Positions 1 to 30,297 of a DNA stretch of 41,247 bases are shown piece after piece (the first letter of the stretch is position 1; each line of letters begins with the position of its first letter). The notes below the pieces were generated by a model. It had not been told where the DNA came from. It saw nothing but the letters and a program-made list of their open reading frames with translations, and did no database searches. The DNA lies in contig JAMCXF010000033.1 in assembly GCA_023475035.1 (NCBI GenBank), positions 2,868-44,114 on the forward strand. Reading direction: 5' to 3'. The translations under genes were made by a program, and so were the position numbers. The stretch comes from Candidatus Pacearchaeota archaeon (GTDB taxonomy: Archaea; Nanobdellota; Nanobdellia; Pacearchaeales; GW2011-AR1).

Positions 1-136
1 TCGGCAACTACTCCTCTGGCGGCACCGCAAGGAAGAGGGCGTTGCTGCTCGAAGAGAACGCGATAACGTATGGGCACCGGCGCGCAAGGCACGCCGGTGC
101 CCGACAACCCACCCGCCCACCCAAGGGAAAGGGATT
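1..136. other. GC-rich block of unknown nature (88/136 G+C by my count, against an AT-rich remainder). It has a perfect 11-bp hairpin gggcaccggcg/cgccggtgccc at 72-102 and a T7 tract at 150-156 on the + strand.
   Basis: Direct reading. Composition changes abruptly near 136/137. I recognised no rRNA, tRNA, SRP RNA or RNase P motif. Confidence 0.3.
108..136 (-). repeat. Copy A of the G-quadruplex-type motif. Minus strand reads aatccctttccct-TGGGTGGGCGGGTGGG.
   Basis: Four G3 tracts with 1-nt loops plus a conserved flank aatccctttccc. Same architecture as 1101-1129. Confidence 0.6.
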
Positions 137-1060: not shown

Positions 1061-1100
1061 GAAAAGAAAATTGGGAAAGGGATTTTTAAGGATTATTATT

Positions 1101-1129
1101 CCCGCCCACCCGCCCGAGGGAAAGGGATT
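1101..1129 (-). repeat. Copy B of the G-quadruplex-type motif. Minus strand reads aatccctttccct-CGGGCGGGTGGGCGGG. A third partial flank, gggaaagggattt, lies at 1073-1085.
   Basis: Sits in the 70-nt spacer between the two paralogous ORFs. It is a GC island in AT-rich DNA. Confidence 0.6.
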
Positions 1130-1728: not shown

Positions 1729-3130
1729 CTAAAACCTCTTGAACTTCTTCCCGAACTTTTTAGCAAACTTCATCATCTGCTTTTGAGACATTCCCTGCGA
1801 CATATCCATATTTCCAGAACCAACTCCTGACTTAATCATATCGTTGAGGAGTCTGTATTGCTTGATTAAAGAACGAACATCACTCGTCGGAACTCCTGCA
1901 CCTTTTGCAATTCTCGCGATTCTTGAAGTTTGCTTTTCCAAAACTTCTGGATTTTCTTTTTCCTCTTGCGTCATTGACTTAACAATATGCTCCCACTTTG
2001 CAACTTTTGCTTCCTGACTTTCAAGCATTCCTTCTGGAATTTTTGCCTTCATATCTGACAATCCCGGAATCATTGATTTTATTTTTTCAAAACCTCCGAG
2101 ATTTGACATTGACTTGACTTGTTCTATAACATCATCAAGAGTTAATTTTCCTTCTTCAATATTTTTCTGAATTTTTTTCTGCTGGCTTTCTTCTGTAACT
2201 GATTTTATTTTTTCAATCAGAGTTTCCAAATCCCCCATTCCGAGAAGACGGGCGAGGAACGAGCCTGGATTAAATTCTTCAATGTCATTTATTTTTTCCC
2301 CTGTTCCGATAAAATAAACTGGTGCTTGCGTTTCTGCGCAAGCTGTCAATGCTCCCCCTGCTTTTGCAGTTGAATCCATTCTTGTAATTATAACCCCTGA
2401 AATATTCATAGCATCTTTAAACTGGCTTGCCTGCTGTTTTGCTGCCTGCCCAATATCTGCGGGAATAACAAGAATTCTCTCTGTAGGTTTTATTTCCTTG
2501 TCAAGAGACTTTATCTCGTCAATTAATTCCTTGTCTAATGTGTGTCTTCCTGCTGTATCAACAAGAATTAAATTGTAATCTTTCAACTGCAAAAGCAGGG
2601 GGAGCATTGACATTTTCATATTTTTTCCATAACTTGACAGGATTTTTTTCAGTCGCATCAATGAAATAATTCAACTTGTGTTTTTCTGCAAGCTGTTTCA
2701 GTTGCTCTGCGGCAGCAGGACGATGAACATCCAAACCTATAAGTGCAACCTTGAATCCTCGTTTTGCATAATAATTTCCTAACTTAGAAATTGTTGTTGT
2801 CTTTCCGCTTCCATAAAGTCCGAGAAGAAGAACAATATTTTGCTTCTTGTCTAATTTTAACTGCTTGTATTCTCCAAGAATAGCCAAAAGTTCATCGTGA
2901 AGGATTTTTATTATATGCTCCTTTTTTTCAATTCCTTTAACTCTCTCATCCATCGCAGCCTTTTTGATTTTGTCTGATAATTCTTTTACTAATGCTACAT
3001 TAACATCTGCTTCAATCAACGCTCTCTGCAAATCTCTTACGATAGAATCGACTAAATCTTTATCAAGAAAAATAGCATTCGCTATCTTGTCAGTTGCTTT
3101 TTTTATTACTTCTCCAAGTTTCTCTAACAT
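1729..3130 (-). CDS. srp54: Signal recognition particle protein SRP54, split into two overlapping ORFs (2558-3130 and 1729-2661) by an apparent +1 frameshift.
   Basis: The N/G domain start (GLYGSGKTTT, DVHRPAAAEQL) is in the upstream ORF. DTAGRH, ITRMDSTAKAGGAL, LLGMGD and the Met-rich M domain are in the downstream ORF. Confidence 0.85.
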
Positions 3131-3177: not shown

Positions 3178-4359
3178 TTACAACCCCAATCTCTCAATAA
3201 ACTTTTCCTTGTCAAACGGTTCTATCTTGTCATATTCCTGTCCTGTTCCAAGATAAAGAATTGGTTTCTTTGTAACATAACCTACGCTAAGTGCTGTTCC
3301 GCCTTTGTCGTCAATGTCTGCTTTTGTCAAAACAATTCCGTTAATTCCGATTGCCTCGTCAAAACTTCTGACTTGTTCAATCGCGTCATTTCCTGTGATG
3401 CTTTCCCCGACAAAAACTTTCTTGTCTGGCTTGCAAACTTTCACAATTTTTTCCATTTCCTTAAGAAGATTTTTTTGAGTATGCATTCTTCCTGCTGTAT
3501 CAATAAGCACGCAATTCAATAAATTCTTTTTTGCATATTTTATTGCATCAAAACCTACTGCCGCAGGGTCACTGCCATATTCGTGTGCAATTATTTTCAC
3601 TCCAATCTTTTCCCCGTGAGTCTTTAGCTGTTCAATTGACGCGGCACGGAAAGTATCTCCTGCAGCAATTACGCTGGAAATTCCTTTCTTCTTAAGATTC
3701 TCTGCAATTTTTGCAATTGTCGTTGTTTTCCCTGTTCCATTTATCCCGCAAAATAAAATAACATACGGCTCATTGGTACTCAGGAATTTATCCTTTATTT
3801 CAACAGCTAAATTCGGAGGTTCAATAAGAATCTCTCTTATTATATCCTTGAATGATTCGTTGATTTCACTTTCAATTTCTTTTTTCAGAATTTCTTTCCT
3901 GACAACCTTTTCTTTCAAGTCCTTCACAATTTTTTCGGCAACTTCAAGAGCCACATTATTCTCTAAAAGAAGCATTTCAAGCTCCTCGCCATAAACATCA
4001 AATTCTTTTTCAGTTATTTTCACTTTCGAAATTTTCTCGCCAAACTTTTCAAAAATGTTTTTCTTTTTCTCTTCCTCTGTCTCTTCTTCTTTTAGAATTA
4101 TTTTCTTTTCTTCCTTTTCCTGCTTTCTTTTTTCCTTTGCTTCCTTTTTTTCTTTTTTTCTCTCTTCCTTTTCTGTTTTTTTAGTTTCTTTTTCAAAAGA
4201 CACCTTATCGGTTTCTTTTGTAAGCTTCCCTTTATGATACTGCTCACGGCTGATTTCTTCCTGAACTTTCTCTTTTATTTCCTCTTCTGCTTTTTCTTCA
4301 GCCTTCTGGCTAAGTTTTTGCGTCCAGTTTTTCAGTTTTTCTTTTAATTTTCCAAACAT
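3178..4359 (-). CDS. ftsY: SRP receptor FtsY with a Lys/Glu-rich N-terminal domain. Start reassigned to ATG 4359.
   Basis: C-terminal NG domain motifs: GINGTGKTTT, AAGDTFRAA, DTAGRMH, LTKADIDDKGG. The 4359 start coincides with the conserved leader junction gacgcgATG that is also used by rpl44e. Confidence 0.85.
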   Translation of the reverse strand: MFGKLKEKLKNWTQKLSQKAEEKAEEEIKEKVQEEISREQYHKGKLTKETDKVSFEKETKKTEKEERKKEKKEAKEKRKQEKEEKKIILKEEETEEEKKKNIFEKFGEKISKVKITEKEFDVYGEELEMLLLENNVALEVAEKIVKDLKEKVVRKEILKKEIESEINESFKDIIREILIEPPNLAVEIKDKFLSTNEPYVILFCGINGTGKTTTIAKIAENLKKKGISSVIAAGDTFRAASIEQLKTHGEKIGVKIIAHEYGSDPAAVGFDAIKYAKKNLLNCVLIDTAGRMHTQKNLLKEMEKIVKVCKPDKKVFVGESITGNDAIEQVRSFDEAIGINGIVLTKADIDDKGGTALSVGYVTKKPILYLGTGQEYDKIEPFDKEKFIERLGL

Positions 4360-4451
4360 CGCGTCATAGTTTTCGACGAGAAAATTTTTCGCTTTGCAAA
4401 AAATTCGGCGAGAATTCACTCGCTTTGCTCGTCATTTATCTCATAGGGAAG
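4357..4451 (-). promoter_or_regulatory. Conserved leader/promoter element, copy 1, abutting the ftsY ATG.
   Basis: 25/25 nt (4357-4381) and 30/30 nt (4412-4441) are identical to 7696-7720 and 7746-7775. The centre differs between copies. The distal end contains agataaatg, which is TATA-like on the minus strand. Confidence 0.6.
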
Positions 4452-4504
4452 AGCATTCAATTAGTTATTAAGTTTTTGGATTATCTTTTGAAAATGAACA
4501 TAAA

Positions 4505-4514
4505 TTTTTATAAA
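4505..4514 (+). promoter_or_regulatory. TATA-box-like tttttataaa, about 22 nt upstream of the apgM ATG.
   Basis: Same TTTATAAA-type motif and spacing recur upstream of tfb, the Sm gene, rnz, ORF 21515 and others. Confidence 0.4.
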
Positions 4515-4535
4515 GAAAAGGGACTTTAATTCTCT

Positions 4536-5780
4536 ATGAAGGGTGTGCTGGTGATTGTTGACGGAATGGGCGATTTGCCCAACGAACATCTTGAAGGGAA
4601 AACTCCCTTGGAAGCTGCGAACATGCCAAACGCTGATTTTCTTGCTGCAAGAGGAGAACTAGGGTATATGTATTCTGTAAAGCCAGGATTTATTCCTGAA
4701 TCTGACGAGGCTATTGTTTCTATCTTCGGAAATGAGCTTATTTCTTCTACAAGAGGACAGTTGGAAGCGAGAGGGACAGACATAAAACTTGTAAGAGGGG
4801 ATTTGGCTTTCCGCGCTAACTTTGCAACTATTGACTCTTTAGAATCTGGAAACATTTTAGACAGAAGAGCAGGCAGAAATCTTTCAACACAGGAAGCCGA
4901 GATTCTTGCAAAAGCATTAAACAAAGGCATTAAATTAGAATCGCCTGTTATTTTCAGATCAACTATCGGGCACAGAGGAGTTTTAGTTTTCAAAGGAGGT
5001 TTTTCAGACAACATTTCAGGAAATGATATGGTTTATTTGCCTGGGCAGACAAAAATCTCAGACAAAATTTCCCCAATAAAAGCTCTTGACGAAGAAGAGA
5101 ACTCTCAATACACTGCAAGTATAGCGAATGCTTTTTTAGAGAAAGCTTTTGAAATTCTTAATCATCATCCTGTCAATGAAAGAAGAAGAGAAAAAGGGCT
5201 TTTGCCTGCAAATTTTCTTTTAGTAAGAGGAGCAGGAATTGAAGTTCCTAAATTAAAAAAATACAAAAGGTGGGCTTCTGCTTCTTACATGCCGTTGGAA
5301 AAAGGATTTTCCAGAGTTTGTGAGATGAAAACTTACTCTTTTGATTATCCAAAACTGAGAGGGATTGATGTTTATGAGAATTTATGGGACGGCTTAAGAA
5401 AAGCGTGCAAGTTTTCAATTGCTGTGCTGAAAAGAAACAGAAGAGCATCTGATTATGTTTACATTCACATAAAAGAAACCGATTTGCCTGGGCACGACGG
5501 AAAAGCTATTGTAAAAAAAGAAATGCTTGAATACATTGACAAAACCCTGTTTAACTTTTTAAGAAAATTTGCACCTCCAAATAATATTAATGTAGTTATT
5601 ACTGCTGACCATTGCACTCCCTGTAAAAATCGGGCGCATTCTGCAGACCCTGTTCCTGTTTTATTTTACAATCATTCAATTCCCAAAGAAAAAAAATTCG
5701 ACGAAAATGAAGCAAGAAAAGGAAAACTTGGAAGAATTAACGGGAAAGAACTTTTAGCCAAGGTCAAGTTTTTGAAATAG
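4536..5780 (+). CDS. apgM: Cofactor-independent phosphoglycerate mutase, archaeal type.
   Basis: VLVIVDGMGD, KTPLEAANMPNAD and ITADHCTPC...HSADPVP are typical of ApgM. Confidence 0.8.
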   Translation: MKGVLVIVDGMGDLPNEHLEGKTPLEAANMPNADFLAARGELGYMYSVKPGFIPESDEAIVSIFGNELISSTRGQLEARGTDIKLVRGDLAFRANFATIDSLESGNILDRRAGRNLSTQEAEILAKALNKGIKLESPVIFRSTIGHRGVLVFKGGFSDNISGNDMVYLPGQTKISDKISPIKALDEEENSQYTASIANAFLEKAFEILNHHPVNERRREKGLLPANFLLVRGAGIEVPKLKKYKRWASASYMPLEKGFSRVCEMKTYSFDYPKLRGIDVYENLWDGLRKACKFSIAVLKRNRRASDYVYIHIKETDLPGHDGKAIVKKEMLEYIDKTLFNFLRKFAPPNNINVVITADHCTPCKNRAHSADPVPVLFYNHSIPKEKKFDENEARKGKLGRINGKELLAKVKFLK

Positions 5781-5828
5781 ATTTTTCTATATAGCAATTG
5801 TTAAAAATTGATTGATACTATTTTTTTT

Positions 5829-6638: not shown

Positions 6639-6657
6639 AAGCCTCCAGAGAGATTTG
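6639..6657 (-). repeat. Exact 19-nt duplicate of the tRNA-Thr 3' end (aagcctccagagagatttg).
   Basis: Identical to 6733-6751. It is followed by ggagttca (6657-6664), the reverse complement of the tgaactcc that follows in the true gene. Confidence 0.8.
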
Positions 6658-6733
6658 GAGTTCACTTCGTTCCCTCTCATTCGACAAGTCAAATGAAACT
6701 CCGTTCAAATATTTTTTTTGTTTTTTTATCATA

Positions 6734-6805
6734 AGCCTCCAGAGAGATTTGAACTCCCGACCCTTTGCTTACAAGGCAAATGCTCTGCCACTGAGCTATG
6801 GAGGC
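6734..6805 (-). tRNA. tRNA-Thr (UGU), 72 nt, no intron.
   Basis: Manual cloverleaf: GCCTCCA/TGGAGGC acceptor, anticodon loop CTTGTAA, T arm GGGAG-TTCAAAT-CTCTC. Confidence 0.9.
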
Positions 6806-7698: not shown

Positions 7699-7785
7699 CG
7701 CGTCATAGTTTTCGACGAGATAATGAACTGGAGTTCATTAGGCGGGAATTCACTCGCTTTGCTCGTCATTTATCTTAAGGGAAGG
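7696..7785 (-). promoter_or_regulatory. Conserved leader/promoter element, copy 2, abutting the rpl44e ATG.
   Basis: Same conserved arms as 4357-4451. The central insert is a perfect 8-bp hairpin, taatgaac-tgga-gttcatta (7721-7740). An in-frame stop 13 codons upstream of the ATG shows it is non-coding. Confidence 0.6.
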
Positions 7786-7848
7786 AGAGAATTTGGGTTT
7801 TTAAAGTTTAAGTTTAATCAGAAATGGCCCTACTACTGAATAAAAATA

Positions 7849-7916
7849 TGGCCCTGCGAACTCGAGCCCCACTCGTTGCAATTAAAACTTTTCTCGCACT
7901 CGTGAAAACTCTCGGG
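7849..7916 (-). repeat. Exact 11-nt duplicate of the tRNA-Val 3' end (tggccctgcga, 7849-7859) plus the conserved ~54-nt trailer module (7861-7916).
   Basis: The duplicate lies exactly 100 nt from the true 3' end. The module ctcgagccccactcgttgcaattaaaacttttctcgcactcgtgaaaactctc is about 93% identical to 28781-28834. Confidence 0.75.
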
Positions 7917-7948
7917 AATTACACCTACGGTTCAATTCAAAATTTAAT

Positions 7949-8020
7949 TGGCCCTGCGAGGAATTGAACCTCGGTCTTGTCCACGTCAAGGACACGTCTT
8001 AGCCGTTGGACTACAAGGCC
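7949..8020 (-). tRNA. tRNA-Val (GAC), 72 nt, no intron.
   Basis: Manual cloverleaf: GGCCTTG/CAGGGCC acceptor, anticodon loop TTGACGT, T arm CGAGG-TTCAATT-CCTCG. Confidence 0.9.
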
Positions 8021-17035: not shown

Positions 17036-17065
17036 TTCTAAAAACTATATTCAAATCAAAAATAA

Positions 17066-21930: not shown

Positions 21931-22044
21931 GCGCGGGTGGCACAGCGGCTACTGCGTCTCCCTGCAGGTCGGAATCATAGATTCCTCGCTCTACTCTTGC
22001 GAGCAGAGAGGAGATTTTCACGGGTTCGAGTCCCGTCCCGCGCT
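21931..22044 (+). tRNA. tRNA-Cys (GCA) with a ~41-nt intron at position 37/38 (about 21968-22008).
   Basis: GCGCGGG/CCCGCGC acceptor, anticodon stem TCTCC/GGAGA, loop CTGCAG|A, T arm ACGGG-TTCGAGT-CCCGT. Intron hairpins: ggaatc-ata-gattcc and ctcgc...gcgag. Confidence 0.85.
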
Positions 22045-22090: not shown

Positions 22091-23881
22091 CTACTTTGTG
22101 AATCTAGGTTTTGCTCCTGTTAAATCCAGGTATTTATCTTTTACCTTTTCTTGAATTTCTTTTTTCTTGGTAATCTTTGCTCTTGGAATTGTGATTCTCG
22201 CAGATATTTTCTTTTTGGGCAATTTGACTTGTTTTTTATGGGCTTTTTTTCTTTTTCTTTTTTTAGTATTTTTTTTCTGTCTTTTCCTTTGATAAATATA
22301 AATTATAACTCCTAATAACACAGCTATCCCCAGCACTACAAACATGTTGGTATTCTGTTTTATAACATTGAATGTTGCCGTTGCACTTGCAAATCTTTCA
22401 TTATATTTAACTTTGACATAAAGAATATATTTCCCGCTGTTTACATTTTCAGGAACTTTAATCCTTTTTAAAAAACCAACTTTCGTTTCCACAGCAATTG
22501 TTTCTTTTTCTGTTAATACTTTATTCCCTTCATCATCTTCTATTACATATTCTATTTCTACATCTGCTCTTTTGAGGAGTCCAAGGTTGAATAACTCTAT
22601 TTCGGCAAGAATTTCCTTTCCTGGCAAAACATTAGAATATTCTTCGGGAATATTTACTCTCAAATCAAAAAGGGCGTCTTTATATTCAACTTCTATCATT
22701 ACTAAAACTTCCTCTGTTGTCATACCATTTTTTATAATCAACTTCCCAACATATAAATCTGGAACAACTTCTTCCCTTATTATTACGTCAAAAGAAATGT
22801 CTCTTGTTTCTCCAGCCTCTAATTCAATCTGCGTTTCATCTAACAGAATAATACCGTCAAGATTTTCCTCAGTTAATGATATGCTTATTTTTTCATCTAA
22901 AATATTTGTTATTGTAATCTTTTTTGTTGTTATACTTCCGGGAGTGAGAGATATACTTATTTCACTAGAATCTAAACTAAAACTTTTAATTTTTTTTATA
23001 ACAGCACCGTCTCCTCCAGAACCGCCGCTGGAACTTCCACCTGCCGGTATTATAGGAGGGACAACAACAGGAGTTTCTTCTGCGGAATAAACTGAAAAAG
23101 ATGTAACATTAAATTTTAAGATTCCTCCTGCATAAGACTCTAATGTGCAAATTGTTGAAGGGCAAATATTCCCTTCTCGTAAAATTCTCGGATCTGAAAA
23201 AGTTAAATCATAAAGAGACAGCGTAGCTGTTTTGTTAAAATTTGGGAGAGCTGTTGAATTTATTGCGATTCTATTCGATGAGATGTTAATATAAGAATTA
23301 ATATCAATCTCACCATCAGAGAAATCTTCATCGTCTGTCAGATTTATATTTTCATTAAATTTTATTTTTCCAAAATCTGTATTCTCTAAAATTATATCAC
23401 TAAAATTTTGCAGTTCTTCATAAGAATAATTGGAAAAATTAGTTGTTTCTCCTTTTTTCTCCCCCTCATATTTATTTTTGTTTACAGAAAATTTTGAAGA
23501 ATCAACAAAAAAAGTGACATTTTTTAATATCTCTCCATTTGAATTGCTTGCATACAAAAATAAAATATGACTTCCTTGAGACGTGCTAAAAGATGTTGAA
23601 TGTGTCAATGTTATATTTTCGCCAGAATCAAGGCTATACCAAACACTTTCTTCATTGCTTGCTGTATAACTAATCGGAATTGATTGATTTCTTATATATG
23701 TTTGATTTTTTGGATTGATTAGGCTCAATACTGGAAGTTCGGCTGAAACAGAAAGGTTTTTGAAAAGATTTCCTTCAATTGCAGATGAGGGGGTTATTGA
23801 AGATGCAGGGCTGACTGAAACCCATGCATTTACATTTAATGATAAAAAAATAACCAAAACTAGAAAAAAAATTTTTTTCAT
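22091..23881 (-). CDS. Surface protein (596 aa) with a signal peptide, beta-sandwich-like repeats, a C-terminal TM anchor and a Lys/Arg-rich tail.
   Basis: MKKIFFLVLVIFLSLNVNA, a G/S linker, ...NMFVVLGIAVLLGVIIYIY-QRKRQKKNTKKRKRKK. The start overlaps the upstream stop (ATGA). Confidence 0.65.
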   Translation of the reverse strand: MKKIFFLVLVIFLSLNVNAWVSVSPASSITPSSAIEGNLFKNLSVSAELPVLSLINPKNQTYIRNQSIPISYTASNEESVWYSLDSGENITLTHSTSFSTSQGSHILFLYASNSNGEILKNVTFFVDSSKFSVNKNKYEGEKKGETTNFSNYSYEELQNFSDIILENTDFGKIKFNENINLTDDEDFSDGEIDINSYINISSNRIAINSTALPNFNKTATLSLYDLTFSDPRILREGNICPSTICTLESYAGGILKFNVTSFSVYSAEETPVVVPPIIPAGGSSSGGSGGDGAVIKKIKSFSLDSSEISISLTPGSITTKKITITNILDEKISISLTEENLDGIILLDETQIELEAGETRDISFDVIIREEVVPDLYVGKLIIKNGMTTEEVLVMIEVEYKDALFDLRVNIPEEYSNVLPGKEILAEIELFNLGLLKRADVEIEYVIEDDEGNKVLTEKETIAVETKVGFLKRIKVPENVNSGKYILYVKVKYNERFASATATFNVIKQNTNMFVVLGIAVLLGVIIYIYQRKRQKKNTKKRKRKKAHKKQVKLPKKKISARITIPRAKITKKKEIQEKVKDKYLDLTGAKPRFTK

Positions 23882-26235
23882 CTCAAATTGGTCAATTCAG
23901 TTCTGTTTATCTTTAGTTCCATGTAATCCATCTGCATAATATTCGCTGCTGCATCGGTTGTGTTCTGTGAAACTAACACACCAAAGCCGGTTTCTCTACC
24001 GCCAGCAGTAGGAATATTTGACGTTACAGAAGATGTCCAAAGCTGGGCCCCGCTAGCATAATTGTACAGTGAAAAAGCAACTGATGTTGCTTCGCTGTTC
24101 ACAACCACTTCCCCTATATACCATATATTACTCGCAATTGTGTAAGTTGAACCTGTTGATGTCGGGCCCGCATTATTTTTGCACATTCCTTTTAATGTAT
24201 TGGCTGCTGTCGTATTAACATCAATCCAACATCCATCAGTTGGTTCGGCAGCAGTAATTGAATCCATAAAACCCATTCTGTATCTAACGTTGGTTCTTGC
24301 CGTAGCATGCTGAAAAATAAACCTTGCTGATTCATTTCCAGCAATTCTAAAAGCAGCAACATCTGTCATTACTCTAAATCCTCCATTTGCTGTTGTCGAA
24401 TCTCTTAGTGCAATAATTCCAGGATGGCTTGCATTTCCTGCAATTGCTACACCTGTTCCTGACGAAATTGCAGCTCCTAAAAATGGATCGTAAGAAAGTG
24501 TCGTGCTATAAGATAAAAATTCCTGAGATATTTTCCAAGGAGGGACACTACTTGAACCGCTTCCTGTTTCATCTGCTGTACAAGTAAATATTCCTGTTGA
24601 ATTATCATAGGCTGAAATTTTATCTGTTCCTGAACAAGTTATTGTTGACGCATTTGTTTTAGAGTCGCCGCCTGCTCCTGTCGCATCTGTACAAAAATCA
24701 GCGTCTGTTCCATCATCTTGAGTAATATTTTTACAGGATATTTTAGTTCTGTTCTGTTCTCCGATATGCAATGCTGAATTATTTACCAGTGTAACATTTG
24801 TACTAATCATTGAGAAAAACCATCTATTATCCCAAGTTGTATTCCAATTTGTAAATGTTAATTGTGAATAATTAAGAGAGATGTTAGTTGCCCAAGTTGA
24901 AATGTCGATAATGCCGAGTATTAATCGCGAAAAAAAACCAGTATTCGCGGTTAAATTCTTGCTTACAGTAAGATTATTGAAGCTGACATTTGCAGTTGTA
25001 TTTAACTGCTGATCAAAATAATTTACTCCTCCGCCACTGCTTGTGATTGTGCACAAATTGCTAACTGCACCTGTAATATTAGAACAGGACAAAGTTGTCA
25101 TATTTTGTCCTCTCGTTATTGACAAGTTTGCAATCATCGACGCTGTTGCATTATACAAATTTTGGATATTTTTTGTGTTGTTTATTATTGATGAATTTAA
25201 AATAAAAGAACTGTGAAAATCAGTAAAACTAAAATCTCCTCCGCCACTGACTAATTGTGAAATTGACAAGTTTGCAATCATCGACGCTGTTGCATTATAC
25301 AAATTTCCAAGATTTGCAGTGGTGTTAATTGTCAATCCTTGCTGTGCAGTTACATTGACTGCAGTTATTCTTCCATCTGTATATGTGTTTGCAAATGCAG
25401 TCCAGTTTCTTGAAATGTTTGCAATCCAGTTTGAAATATTTATATCACCTTCAATAAATATTGAACCTGTTACATTCAGAACATTTGACAAATTCGTCCA
25501 TGTTCCTGCAAAATTATTTGACTGATTTGTAAATGCCAAATTTGCATAATTCATTCCTCCCACTCCGCTTTGGCTTATCGATAAGTTTGCAATCATCGAC
25601 GCTGTTGCATTATACAATTCCTGAATATTTTTTGTTGTATTCTTTAAAAATAACTTGCTGCTATTCCAATTTCCAAAAAAAGTATCCGCTGTTATATTAT
25701 TTGTTGTATTAATTGCTCCGCTTCCATTTATTTTCCCATTAAAATCAATATCTTGAACGAATAAAGTTGTGATTCTTGTGACTAAATCCCCCAACCAAGA
25801 AAAAAATCCTGTGCCTACTGTTGTCATATTATAATTTATTATGTTTAGATTGGAGTCTGCTTCAATTCCGCTTATCGTTATATTTCTTGCTCTGAAAGCA
25901 TAAGGGACTCTCGCAATTTTTTCATTTGATTGTAATATTCCTGTTCTATAAACACAAAGCCAATATTGTTCTGAATAATTCAGATTTGTATTTTCTAAAT
26001 AATAAGAAATTATCCCTTGCGCATCTGTTGTTTGAGTGGAATAATTTGTATATATTGGATTATTGCAATCATCAGCAATTGAAATATTAAATTCAAATTT
26101 GAAATCCCCTGTAACAATATCTCCGTTTGTATCTACTGCCTGCACATTAACATGAATTGAATCATTTACGGGGACGGCATAAATAAAATTAACAAAAAGA
26201 ATGCATATTGCAATTAAAAAGATTTTTTTCATCAT
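23878..26235 (-). CDS. Secreted sequon-rich protein (785 aa) with tail-fibre-like repeats and a probable jelly-roll (ConA/LamG-like) C-terminal domain.
   Basis: Signal peptide MMKKIFLIAICILFVNFIYA. ARVPYAFRARNI motif. The motif LYNATASMIANLSI occurs three times. More than 40 N-x-S/T sequons. Confidence 0.65.
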   Translation of the reverse strand: MMKKIFLIAICILFVNFIYAVPVNDSIHVNVQAVDTNGDIVTGDFKFEFNISIADDCNNPIYTNYSTQTTDAQGIISYYLENTNLNYSEQYWLCVYRTGILQSNEKIARVPYAFRARNITISGIEADSNLNIINYNMTTVGTGFFSWLGDLVTRITTLFVQDIDFNGKINGSGAINTTNNITADTFFGNWNSSKLFLKNTTKNIQELYNATASMIANLSISQSGVGGMNYANLAFTNQSNNFAGTWTNLSNVLNVTGSIFIEGDINISNWIANISRNWTAFANTYTDGRITAVNVTAQQGLTINTTANLGNLYNATASMIANLSISQLVSGGGDFSFTDFHSSFILNSSIINNTKNIQNLYNATASMIANLSITRGQNMTTLSCSNITGAVSNLCTITSSGGGVNYFDQQLNTTANVSFNNLTVSKNLTANTGFFSRLILGIIDISTWATNISLNYSQLTFTNWNTTWDNRWFFSMISTNVTLVNNSALHIGEQNRTKISCKNITQDDGTDADFCTDATGAGGDSKTNASTITCSGTDKISAYDNSTGIFTCTADETGSGSSSVPPWKISQEFLSYSTTLSYDPFLGAAISSGTGVAIAGNASHPGIIALRDSTTANGGFRVMTDVAAFRIAGNESARFIFQHATARTNVRYRMGFMDSITAAEPTDGCWIDVNTTAANTLKGMCKNNAGPTSTGSTYTIASNIWYIGEVVVNSEATSVAFSLYNYASGAQLWTSSVTSNIPTAGGRETGFGVLVSQNTTDAAANIMQMDYMELKINRTELTNLR

Positions 26236-28637: not shown

Positions 28638-28752
28638 ATATCCTTTAATGACTCTGGGCTAAAATTTAGGAAAAATTTTGCCTGCATCGCCATACTTCGT
28701 ATGGCTCTGTGTCCTCTCTTCGTTGCGGGCGAGCATTTTCTCATTCTTCGAA

Positions 28753-28888
28753 AATGGCTCTGGAGAGTGCTGACCTCTTACTCGAGCCCCCACTCGTTGC
28801 AATTAAAATTTATCTCGCACTCGTGAAAACTCTCTACCCAACTCCCCACTCGTAGCTATAAAAATTACTGGCACTCGTGAAAACTCTC
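28753..28888 (-). repeat. Exact 25-nt duplicate of the tRNA-Met 3' end (28753-28777) plus two tandem copies of the trailer module (28781-28834 and 28842-28888).
   Basis: aatggctctggagagtgctgacctc is identical to 28918-28942. The modules share cccactcgt...gcactcgtgaaaactctc with 7861-7916. Confidence 0.75.
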
Positions 28889-28919
28889 GCGACCTCTGCC
28901 TACGGCCTCGATCGCGGAA

Positions 28920-28991
28920 TGGCTCTGGAGAGTGCTGACCTCCCGACCTCGGCCTTATGAGAGCCGCGCTCTACCGCTGAGCTACAGAGCC
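28920..28991 (-). tRNA. tRNA with CAU anticodon (elongator Met or Ile2), 72 nt, with an atypical T loop.
   Basis: GGCTCTG/CAGAGCC acceptor and anticodon loop CTCATAA. The T arm GGGAG-GTCAGCA-CTCTC has G at positions 54 and 58 instead of T54/A58. G1:C72 argues against an initiator. Confidence 0.75.
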
Positions 28992-29265: not shown

Positions 29266-30297
29266 TCACTCAATCCTGTCAATTTCAGAAAGATTTCTAA
29301 CGGCTTCAATCAAGTCACTTAATTTCTTTGGCGTCTCAGCCATAAAAAGAATGCTGTATTTCAGATTTTCTTCTAAAGCTTTTTTATGTGATTTTAAAAT
29401 TTCTTTTTCTGTAATCTTTTTTTGATTGAACACAAAAAGCAATTCTTCTTTCCTGTCTTTTTTTATTTTCAAAACTGCTTCATTGTTTCTGAAATCTTTT
29501 ATATCCAAAATTTCAATATTCTTCTTTTCCAAAAATTCTTTTATTTTATTAAAAAAGTTTTCATCTTTTTTGTTATTGTTCTGTTTTTTCTTTTTTGGTT
29601 TTGGTTTTTCTTTTTTTGAAACTTGTTCTGACTCTTCGTGAACAGAAACAGATTCATCTTGTTTTTTTGGAACATCAAAAATATTTTCTATCTTTTTTTC
29701 TTCTATGATTACAACTTCTTTTCTTTCTGAAATTTGCTCAACAGGTATTTCTGTTTCCTGTTTAATTTCAACAATCTCCATTTTTTCTTCAATCTTTGGT
29801 TTTTGTTCCTCAAAAGACACCTTATCGGTTTCTTTTGTAAGCTTCCCTTTAAAATACTGCTCACGGCTGTTCTCTTTTGGATTAAAATCTTCTTCTGGAA
29901 TGGTAAAATATCTCCAGTAAATATCTTCATCTTTTCTGAAAGGAATTGCAAAATCTTTTATTTCTCTTAGTGCAACTCTTATTGCGGGCTGAAGTTCAGA
30001 ATCTTTCAAAAATTTTTTTTCTTTCAAAAAAAGAAATGCCTCTTTCTCTTTGCTTTTGAGATACTTTGAAAAATTTTCAAGCTGGGGCTCTTGTCCTGGA
30101 ATAAAATAAAGCGGAGAACTGCCGACTTTCAGATTGCTTATGCCTATCATTTTTTCGCTATATAAATCAGATAGAAATGCCGATGCAAAAAGAATGCTCA
30201 ATCCTGTTTCTTTTGATATATGAACAGGTAAACTAGGGCCTCTTAACCTGATAAAATGCATTATCTTCTCTTTTACTTGGAGCGCGTCCTGAACCAT
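29266..30297 (-). CDS. Hypothetical protein with a winged-helix-like N-terminal domain, a Lys/Glu-rich linker and a conserved C-terminal domain.
   Basis: ORF track. ATG 30297 is preferred over TTG 30312 because of the TATA at 30320-30329. The N-terminal IRLRGPSLPVHISKETGLSILFASAFLSDL...SPLYFIPGQ looks like a wHTH. No firm family assignment. Confidence 0.5.
   Translation of the reverse strand: MVQDALQVKEKIMHFIRLRGPSLPVHISKETGLSILFASAFLSDLYSEKMIGISNLKVGSSPLYFIPGQEPQLENFSKYLKSKEKEAFLFLKEKKFLKDSELQPAIRVALREIKDFAIPFRKDEDIYWRYFTIPEEDFNPKENSREQYFKGKLTKETDKVSFEEQKPKIEEKMEIVEIKQETEIPVEQISERKEVVIIEEKKIENIFDVPKKQDESVSVHEESEQVSKKEKPKPKKKKQNNNKKDENFFNKIKEFLEKKNIEILDIKDFRNNEAVLKIKKDRKEELLFVFNQKKITEKEILKSHKKALEENLKYSILFMAETPKKLSDLIEAVRNLSEIDRIE

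Follow-up and report, generated by a model that had tools for sequence, protein, structure and literature searches.

The window, by which is meant the whole stretch of 41,247 nt that was analysed, has a G+C content of 34% and carries archaeal housekeeping genes, including those for S3Ae, L44e, S17e, S8e, TFB, TFE, FtsY, SRP54, RNase Z, EndA and aminoacyl-tRNA synthetases. The proteins nearest to those of the window are encoded in metagenome-assembled genomes (MAGs) labelled Nanoarchaeota, Nanoarchaeia or Pacearchaeota, and a look-up of exact proteins for strain-level variants returned the same contig only (an identical Logan contig, run SRR10267473). In DPANN archaea the genomes are very small, tRNA genes are present as single copies, and mobile DNA is little studied. 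Each tRNA gene in the window is preceded by a TTTTAAA-type box some 23-25 nt upstream, CCA is not encoded, and one of the tRNAs contains an intron. The gene for tRNA-Val(GAC) is followed by a compact series of features, which are given here in the direction in which the tRNA is read, with loci outside the window designated by L numbers.

7949-8020, minus strand: tRNA-Val(GAC), intact and without an encoded CCA (ARAGORN; Rfam tRNA model, 59 bits)
7939-7948, minus strand: T-rich spacer ATTAAATTTT, a native trailer, homologous to the TTTTATTTT that stands directly 3' of the tRNA at the L037 empty site
7929-7938, minus strand: A', an inverted copy of the T-loop region, GAATTGAACC, complementary at 10 of 10 positions to tRNA positions 52-61
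7926-7928, minus strand: GTA loop, the centre of the palindrome
7915-7925, minus strand: A*, a damaged direct copy of tRNA positions 52-62, GGTGTAATTCC versus GGTTCAATTCC, with two changes
7860-7914, minus strand: M, a hairpin repeat of 55 nt, CGAGAG...CTCGAGT (covariance-model match of 73.8 bits, E = 1e-17)
7849-7859, minus strand: B, an exact copy of tRNA positions 63-73, TCGCAGGGCCA
7825-7831, minus strand: a short third tail copy, AGGGCCA, weak and possibly due to chance, which aligns with AGCCGT of the L037 empty site

Read from 5' to 3' the unit consists of the tRNA (A-B), spacer, A', GTA, A*, M and B, which is a direct, inverted, direct arrangement. Since 7915-7925 corresponds to positions 52-62 in damaged form, what surrounds M is a second partial tRNA copy, which M splits precisely between positions 62 and 63; M does not simply adjoin a repeat. 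The segment that bears M (positions 52-73) is a spare partial copy downstream of the intact tRNA. The original prediction, which was made from these letters alone, had pointed to the last 11 nt of tRNA-Val recurring 100 nt away, and TGGCCCTGCGA does have two exact occurrences in the window, at 7849-7859 and 7949-7959; with one mismatch allowed, 0.2 chance matches are expected and two are reached in 1 of 100 shuffles. Its statements about the sequence all hold: the reverse complement of 7961-7970 is matched exactly by GGTTCAATTC (7929-7938), and the module found after tRNA-Val recurs at tRNA-Met, where there are two in tandem (28835-28889 and 28780-28834). The shorter copy, ATGGCCCT, is likewise present at 7824-7831, although the 7 nt of 7825-7831 are too few to separate from chance. 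The module itself is real but its limits, given as 7861-7916, need correction, as the string quoted for it covers 53 nt (7861-7913) and the element extends from 7860 to 7914. The leading 17-mer of M, GAGAGTTTTCACGAGTG, is found three times in the window, once after tRNA-Val and twice in tandem after tRNA-Met, against an expectation of 0.06. To regard the element as an insert of 89 nt within an 11-nt target duplication is no longer tenable, in that the mobile core would be the 55 nt between positions 62 and 63.

The trailers of other tRNA genes in the window contain related arrangements.

28920-28991, minus strand: tRNA-Met(CAT), with the unusual T-loop GTCAGCA
28890-28915, minus strand: hairpin GCGATCGAGGCC-GTA-GGCAGAGGTCG, whose right arm is like the variable/T-stem region of tRNA-Met; near-identical in L040
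28835-28889, minus strand: M-a, the diverged upstream member of a tandem pair
28780-28834, minus strand: M-b, 96% identical to the tRNA-Val copy (repeat family D4; covariance model, 79.2 bits)
28755-28777, minus strand: exact 23-nt copy of the tRNA-Met 3' end
28649-28754, minus strand: two more short inserts, with ends CAGAGCCA or CAGAGTCA ('M2' at 28710-28754 and 'Y' at 28657-28701)
6640-6733, minus strand: tRNA-Thr trailer insert, with an inverted T-loop arm ATTTGAAC, a hairpin with a GAATGAGA motif and an 18-nt tail copy (6640-6657)
17050-17057, minus strand: tRNA-Leu trailer, with the inverted T-loop arm GATTTGAA only and no M; the orthologous L031 locus has a full unit

The tRNA-Met trailer follows the same plan as that of tRNA-Val, but with two tandem M elements and an exact tail copy of 23 nt. 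Further copies of the tRNA-Met tail, each of 8 nt, are present at 28702-28709 and, with one mismatch, at 28649-28656, so that the locus is an array of short inserts, each of which ends in a copy of the tRNA 3' end and the order of which varies among genomes. The insert that follows the tRNA-Thr gene (6734-6805) lacks M, and the corresponding site in L038 is empty. No trailer insert or arm is associated with the tRNA-Arg gene in the window.

Pattern scans together with a covariance model yield 28 copies of M in total, which are distributed over the window and low-GC Nanoarchaeota- or Pacearchaeota-like MAG and metagenome loci. A scan of species-representative genomes places M in three Nanoarchaeota MAGs and a metagenome scan adds ten more low-GC loci; the covariance model was built from 20 copies and the divergent copies were then found with it, which brings the number to 28. 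The suggested check for copies beyond the two loci in the window is thus answered by many, and the suspicion that a small gene-less element is involved is borne out, both by its occurrence at many loci and genomes and by differences in its presence among close relatives. Within one MAG two M cores are identical over 55 nt and yet have different, unrelated flanks (L003 and L007). In Rfam searches, only tRNAs reach the gathering threshold across the whole window, and neither the Val nor the Met trailer gives anything up to E = 10. Phage and plasmid collections contain no BLAST match to the Val unit and a pattern scan of viral contigs gave 0 matches. The high-GC metagenome matches L010, L011, L016-L020, L022-L028 and L034, together with L008 from Ruminococcus, lie inside unrelated sequence and are put down to chance.

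The support for a hairpin in M comes from the comparison of copies only, since the whole Val trailer when folded alone does no better than shuffles (z = -0.17). In the 28-copy alignment, which was fitted to the covariance model, compensatory changes are seen in 10 of 15 pairs and 96.5% of cells are paired, as opposed to 34-58% in slid controls; an independent MAFFT alignment, not fitted to the model, has 3 covarying pairs. The search patterns fixed part of the M stem, and invariance in those columns is therefore a matter of ascertainment. Within the stem there are two motifs in which CGAG stands opposite CGAG, ten pairs apart and likely to form tandem G.A pairs, and a run of three to four consecutive U.G pairs, on account of which the hairpin would form on one strand only, either as RNA or as single-stranded DNA. 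The CGAG motifs were also considered as parts of a K-turn, a C/D-box, an H/ACA or a bulge-helix-bulge (BHB) structure, all of which were rejected by inspection as the consensus spacings do not fit. Equally, M does not look like an archaeal BHB tRNA intron, since by inspection the end of the 5' exon (..UUCC) lacks a complement at the M 3' end. A mini-helix in which the 3' end of M pairs with the copied acceptor strand can be drawn for Val, Met and Lys but fails in Leu, and the idea was discarded.

At what kinds of site is M found? Besides tRNA-Val and tRNA-Met in the window, it follows the genes for tRNA-Lys (L001), tRNA-Met (L003, L040), tRNA-Glu (L013), tRNA-Ser (L014, L021), tRNA-Cys (L029), tRNA-Tyr (L030) and tRNA-Leu (L031), always in the sense orientation of the tRNA and always splitting a copy of its 3' region. 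The split falls precisely after ..TTCRAWTCC in four of the units (Val, Leu and both Ser) and within a few nt of the T-loop in the others. Across structured-RNA genes the position is thus on the 3' side of the T-loop, mostly at 62/63, with outliers at about 50/51 (tRNA-Met) and 58/59 (tRNA-Cys), and the target usually lies between C and T. The junctions of M are consecutive tRNA nucleotides in the Val, Leu, two Ser, Glu, Tyr, Lys and Cys units, and no target-site duplication was found around M, the flanks in the Val, Leu and two Ser units being the consecutive positions 62|63. To the left of the M-split tRNA copy stands the inverted T-loop arm, and in the Val, Met, Leu and two Ser units a loop of GTA, GTG, GTT or GT occupies the corresponding point, the centre of the palindrome. 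The apex GAACC-GTN-GGTGT is common to the Val, Leu and one of the Ser units, and a close variant, GAACC-GT-GGTTT, stands in the second Ser unit; in their outer parts the arms agree with the tRNA of the locus concerned. The GGTG signature of A* also recurs in the Leu (L031) and Ser (L014) units. The direct repeats of the tRNA end are of 8, 11, 14, 18, 22, 23-25 or 44 nt, and the duplication runs past the end of the tRNA by 33 nt in L014 and by 10 nt in L021. In L003, copies of the tRNA end are arranged in tandem and separated by spacers of 37 nt.

The element is not confined to tRNA genes, as an element specific to tRNAs would be, since M is also present by the SRP RNA gene, in G-rich intergenic hairpins and inside an ORF. 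At the SRP RNA gene (L006, L002) an intact 3' end is followed first by a spacer and an inverted arm, and then by a duplicate 3' end that a flipped M divides; as the layout is unchanged although M has the opposite orientation, the pattern of duplication follows the host gene and not the direction of M. The G-rich intergenic hairpin 'E2' (TTTCCC..GGGNGGGNGGGNGGG) contains M in L004, L007, L012, L001 and L036, and E2 in turn can occupy the loop of M. In L040 a nested M/E2 composite (4332-4388 plus nested flanks) is read through in frame within a TFE-like ORF. Most copies of M are intergenic, and L004 has two that run antisense to the genes on either side.

Fundamental to the interpretation of M is the comparison of orthologous loci. 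The tRNA-Val locus is syntenic in four genomes, and these represent four states, namely empty, with the inverted T-loop copy only, with the full unit, and with an interrupted gene. They are given here with the identity of their S3Ae to that of the window.

L038 (S3Ae 81%): tRNA-Val intact, with nothing 3' of it
L037 (S3Ae 90%): tRNA-Val identical to that of the window, then TTTTATTTT-GAATTAAAC..CCGT and the shared promoter region; no M
Window (S3Ae 100%): full tRNA-Val unit
L036 (S3Ae 95%): no intact tRNA-Val; the gene is split by M

The arm GAATTAAAC at the L037 empty site resembles A', and arms of the same type are present in the Leu and two Ser units. The L036 gene reads ...GACCGAGGTGCAATTCC[M]CAGCAGGACCA, and relative to the window it is without exactly the 45 nt between the T-loop copies. 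It is further damaged by a D-loop deletion, a T-loop substitution (T55 to G if ungapped), a broken T-stem and a C3.A70 mismatch. These extra lesions indicate that this tRNA-Val gene is decaying and that M cannot be regarded as a harmless intron when it lies in the sole copy of a gene; judged from its sequence, L036 is a case in which M in the only copy inactivates the tRNA. The tRNA-Met locus is also variable, being empty in L041 (TFE-like neighbour 71% identical to that of the window), occupied in L039 (80%) by two inserts homologous to Y and M2 in the opposite order and by no M, and furnished in L040 (69%) with the hairpin and M of the window almost base for base. The empty sites in relatives that were to be looked for have therefore been found at both the tRNA-Val and the tRNA-Met locus. 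Elsewhere, L004 is syntenic with window positions 3178-5780 and has two M elements in the spacer between apgM and the GINS gene, which in the window is 27 nt long and free of M, and a clean empty/filled pair for E2 (window 1100-1115 versus L036 18802-18859) has no clear duplication. With regard to the order of events, either duplication followed by insertion of M or insertion of M followed by rescue would fit the four states at tRNA-Val, and the sites with an inverted arm only (L037 Val and window Leu) could be either precursors or footprints.

No gene for a mobilising enzyme was seen with these copies. Pfam searches of 28 ORFs from the window and L004 detected no transposase, integrase, reverse transcriptase or Cas1, and the first three of these were not encountered anywhere in the window or next to any copy of M. 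No insertion sequence with ends matching M was seen in about 170 kb of loci, the window having no transposase domain, and no RAYT or TnpA gene was seen in the M loci examined; the ORFs of TnpB size turned out to be FtsY and phosphoglycerate mutase. With no enzyme in the window or near the copies, it is comparison only that points to the mobility of M.

M is a dispersed, structured and gene-less repeat whose presence varies among relatives, and at RNA genes it is accompanied by a partial duplication of the direct-inverted-direct type, with an intact gene remaining. From these comparisons M would appear to be selfish and mobile, and presumably mobilised in trans. The account preferred here, which is probable though well short of certain, is that M is a non-autonomous mobile hairpin, similar to the REP and Rickettsia palindromic elements (RPEs), that belongs to a Pacearchaeota-like clade of Nanoarchaeota, and that the repeats of the tRNA end are by-products of insertion or repair. 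The duplication could arise by fold-back (snap-back) or template-switch repair or replication at a hairpin-prone site, followed by a switch back, in an event that would regenerate the 3' part of the tRNA and retain the disrupted copy; alternatively, it may be the stereotyped outcome of the insertion reaction itself. The insertions that survive would be only those that were rescued or dispensable. If the layout reflects fold-back or template-switch repair, then the copies of the tRNA end are by-products and not signals that the tRNA needs. However, the apex found, with one variant, in units at four different tRNAs suggests that the inverted arm, loop, A* and M travel or arise as one stereotyped block, which a generic repair accident would not predict and which counts against the preferred account. 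Instead, DPANN archaea might possess a dedicated and undescribed mechanism of insertion, run by a putative enzyme, that gives rise to the block and in which the T-arm of stable-RNA genes is recognised and the 3' end regenerated, whether as 'safe-landing' transposition or as a tRNA-anchored array of miniature cassettes. This is put forward tentatively, as a lesser possibility, and if true a dedicated T-arm-guided insertion would represent a new type of site-selective DNA insertion.

In one alternative explanation the units are miniature integrative cassettes, circular inserts with or without M for which a copy of the tRNA 3' end serves as the attachment site, and which a site-specific recombinase of the host or a helper would assemble into integron-like arrays. 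The direct repeats do include the last bases of the tRNA, with some extending into the trailer and with a variable start, and the tRNA-Met array has three units in the window and two in L039 with the order of M2 and Y reversed, to which can be added the tandem array of L003 with its 37-nt spacers. Although the neighbouring protein is only 69% identical, the window and L040 are near-identical over the first part of the Met unit, TTCCGCGATCGAGGC.GTAGGCAGAGGTCGC and then M; L039 and L041, in which that protein is 80% and 71% identical to the one in the window, lack the unit. Such cassettes are nonetheless unlikely. The Val empty site of L037 already has the spacer and inverted arm, and so the block inserted at tRNA-Val starts about 20 nt downstream of the tRNA end; the duplications reach 33 nt (L014) and 10 nt (L021) beyond it; M also inserts without any tRNA-like repeat; and there is no integrase in the window, nor any known precedent for gene-less units of 37-170 nt as integrase substrates. 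For the same reasons (the L037 empty site, the missing integrase in the window and repeats of anything from 8 to 44 nt) the original suggestion of simple att scars is a poor fit. A further scheme is target-primed copying, of a SINE/LINE type or primed at a nick, where a nick by the T-loop would prime synthesis on an M template, a jump to the displaced strand would give A* and a snap-back A', and a second nick at a variable position would make the duplication variable. It would explain why one boundary is fixed, with the 3' end of M abutting tRNA position 63, while the other varies (11, 14, 22, 25 and 44 nt), why an inverted 10-nt arm with a 3-nt loop resembles snap-back synthesis, why the targets are tRNA and SRP RNA genes, and why all tRNA-associated M elements are in the sense orientation. 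The scheme is rendered improbable by the SRP RNA unit, where M is flipped and the duplication pattern is the same, contrary to what priming oriented by M predicts, by the insertions in E2 hairpins that have no duplication, and by the fact that neither a reverse transcriptase nor an endonuclease is seen in the window or the neighbourhoods of M.

M and its surroundings could also function as a trailer signal in RNA or DNA, for processing, termination or, as had been proposed, sequestration of the T arm, or else the A/T-rich centre of M could act as a BRE/TATA promoter. Here the hairpin is conserved with covariation and has its G.U pairs in the tRNA sense strand, the centre of many copies is like the TTTTAAA boxes upstream of the window tRNAs, and the inverted arm is exactly complementary to the T-loop. 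Yet the unit is missing from the orthologous tRNA-Val and tRNA-Met loci of relatives with flanking proteins 71-90% identical, which makes a functional trailer that sequesters the T arm unlikely; only a part of the tRNAs have it; copies of M are found antisense to adjacent genes, within an ORF and within other repeats as well; and the whole Val trailer has the unremarkable fold given above. The promoter version in particular was rejected as the A/T-rich, TATA-like centre is lost in divergent copies and the orientation is sometimes antisense, and a functional signal of any of these kinds is very improbable. Finally, M could be a passive passenger of plain local tandem duplication or slippage, in an AT-rich genome, at RNA genes that are rich in GC and prone to form hairpins, in line with the tandem identical units of L003, the flank duplication of L014 and the 'insert plus duplicated gene start' at the GINS gene of relatives. 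This has next to no likelihood and would seem to be already largely refuted by the dispersed copies, with M at unlinked loci, contigs and genomes that have unrelated flanks, and with identical M cores in different contexts.

The implications of M as a mobile hairpin concern both the biology and the annotation of these genomes. The family suggests that a selfish hairpin repeat can spread in the tiny genomes of DPANN archaea and land in tRNA genes, SRP RNA genes and ORFs, with the outcome at a tRNA being either a dead gene or a rescued one with a spare, disrupted tail. The presence of M within a copy of a tRNA tail shows that small genomes of symbiotic archaea tolerate mobile DNA in essential RNA genes. 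The empty, partial, filled and disrupted states at tRNA-Val form a rare natural series of how essential RNA genes survive insertions, and the same series bears on how split or fragmented tRNA genes might arise. In annotation, M accounts for repeats and for fragments that resemble tRNAs, both of which mislead tRNA finders and look like the scars of integration.

How does M relate to systems that have already been described? M represents a new family, found in archaea, within the known general class of selfish palindromic repeats, and it behaves unusually at RNA genes. Literature searches turned up nothing on such elements in DPANN archaea, and the coupling of a hairpin repeat to a stereotyped duplication of the 3' end of a host RNA gene is, as far as could be found, undescribed. 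Integration of elements is known to leave tRNA fragments behind (PMC9897764, PMC3293823). As at att sites, direct repeats of the tRNA 3' end come after an intact tRNA and bound the insert, and there are arrays of such fragments. Unlike att sites, the M-type inserts are gene-less and only 37-170 nt long, the insert and every window ORF tested gave no integrase gene or remnant, and the inverted T-loop arm and the tRNA copy split around M are not att features. Moreover, the Val insertion point lies downstream of the tRNA end, and the L037 empty site has no clean tRNA-end junction, as it keeps the spacer and inverted arm. When the casposon of Aciduliprofundum boonei inserts, the T-loop segment of tRNA-Pro serves as the 'leader' and it is the segment next to it that becomes duplicated (PMC5137440); the duplicated segment in M units likewise begins just 3' of the T-loop. 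Casposons, however, have a fixed target duplication of 14-15 bp (15 bp in Aciduliprofundum boonei), terminal inverted repeats and a Cas1 gene (PMC5137440), whereas the repeats of M units vary from 8 to 44 nt, such ends are lacking and the window has no Cas1. The ends of M are inverted repeats because M is wholly one hairpin, and the target-site duplication of fixed length that marks a classical MITE is not seen with M.

By analogy, M appears to work most like REP elements and RPEs. Bacterial REP/BIME sequences are mobilised by RAYTs, which are Y1 transposases of the IS200/IS605-like type, in the account outlined in PMC2817692; palindrome-associated elements derived from IS200/IS605 belong to the same comparison. 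On the features outlined there, both M and REPs are imperfect palindromes that are mostly extragenic, in some cases form tandem clusters, are asymmetric with respect to strand and lack a target-site duplication; the 28 copies of M fit the description of a short, imperfect, extragenic and multi-copy palindrome. M differs from REPs in having no conserved GTAG-type head or fixed target tetranucleotide, in the lack of any RAYT or TnpA gene among the loci examined, in a copy number that is so far modest, and in being archaeal. RPEs are reportedly short gene-less hairpin repeats that occur in intergenic DNA, in RNA-gene regions and in frame in protein genes, as described by Ogata et al. in 2000, and to our knowledge they have no known mobilising enzyme. 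M is similarly a short, gene-less hairpin in a small genome of the symbiont type. Its length of 55 nt compares with about 100-150 for RPEs, and it is archaeal and has two tandem G.A (CGAG/CGAG) motifs and a G.U run. We also know of no description in RPEs of a stereotyped direct-inverted-direct duplication of the 3' part of a host gene. Like RPEs, M occupies intergenic and RNA-gene sites as well as a protein gene in frame, the last being represented by the TFE-like ORF of L040. As a separate observation, a second repeat, of 75 nt, lies in frame in two ORFs of the window.

The combination of an insert with a variable direct duplication that leaves the gene intact is also found at a protein-coding gene, which here is the gene for GINS. 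In three relatives (the tRNA-Val locus relatives L036 and L038, and the comparison locus L004) the first 13-27 nt of this gene (ATGATAACTTATA...) are copied upstream of its real start, and the copy is separated from that start by an insert of 50-400 nt. The window (5780-5808) has the simple state.

GINS-start duplications with an insert in relatives
L036, 11800-11926
L038, 8701-8862
L004, 2244-2722

Duplicated fragments are not confined to the 3' side of tRNA genes. Some have a partial copy of their own 5' end upstream, as in the comparison loci L003 (6200-6320) and L014 (about 59 nt upstream); the L003 example, GGCTCTGTAGCTCATAGG, is found about 85 nt before tRNA-Met. Fragments therefore collect at both ends of these tRNA genes. 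The T-loop of the window's tRNA-Met (28920-28991), GTCAGCA, is unusual and has G at positions 54 and 58; it is common to the tRNA-Met locus relatives L039, L040 and L041, while that of L003 differs, reading TTAAATT. In each genome the copied tRNA-Met tail agrees with the T-loop of that same genome.

A rearrangement is also seen at tRNA-Thr, a gene that occupies the same locus in all cases, between S3Ae and the gene for a small MWQD membrane protein. In the close relatives L036 and L037 the gene and its promoter are flipped with respect to the window and L038, and the inverted T-arm pieces within the window's Thr insert may be related to this flip.

The tRNA-Thr gene
Window, 6734-6805
L036, 10579-10650
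L037, 2769-2840

The Thr insert also holds the motif GAATGAGA(R)(R)(R), which has four occurrences in 145 kb, three of them inside post-tRNA inserts that lack the 55-nt hairpin repeat M. This motif may be the mark of a second insert family, 'M2'.

Inserts with GAATGAGA(R)(R)(R)
Window, 28710-28754, after tRNA-Met
Window, 6658-6733, after tRNA-Thr
L001, about 2190-2240, after tRNA-Lys

Among the non-tRNA sites that host M in relatives, the commonest is the intergenic element E2, which is G-rich in a genome of 34% G+C and in which four G-runs come after a small hairpin, an arrangement that could form a G-quadruplex. In the E2/M composites, the right flank resembles the GGCGGGAAT that is read on the plus strand of a 51-nt repeat, within which GCGAGTGAAT is found. 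One copy of this repeat lies at the start of FtsY or immediately before it; the other precedes the start of L44e by approximately 40-90 nt.

Repeated elements in the window
1100-1115 and 108-122, minus strand, E2, ATCCCTTTCCCT-N-GGGNGGGNGGGNGGG
4403-4453 and 7737-7787, 51-nt repeat, copies 86% identical
4185-4259 and 29802-29876, minus strand, 75-nt repeat, copies 91% identical
25116-25646, 72-nt repeat, three copies 83-85% identical, inside a 785-aa ORF (23878-26235)

The 75-nt repeat is located in frame within two unrelated genes, adding the peptide SREQY(H/F)KGKLTKETDKVSFE to FtsY, in its N-terminal region, and to a TFE-like protein, in its linker; the TFE-like homologue of L040 is without this peptide. 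It looks like a second selfish repeat, placed within coding regions.

Two further gene calls can each be read in two ways. ARAGORN in intron mode gives a tRNA-Cys(GCA) whose intron is 41 nt long (21931-22044, plus strand); the Rfam tRNA model leaves it unreported at its gathering threshold. This call may be a false positive, or the tRNA may be real and contain an intron. A frameshift near 2600 breaks SRP54 (1729-3130, minus strand) into a pair of ORFs that overlap, 2558-3130 and 1729-2661, and this break is either genuine or an error of the assembly; the SRP54 homologue in L036 is a single ORF of 459 aa.

Finally, the 785-aa ORF encodes a large protein of a secreted or surface type, with an SO2946-like domain at its C-terminal end, and the 72-nt repeats are internal to this protein.
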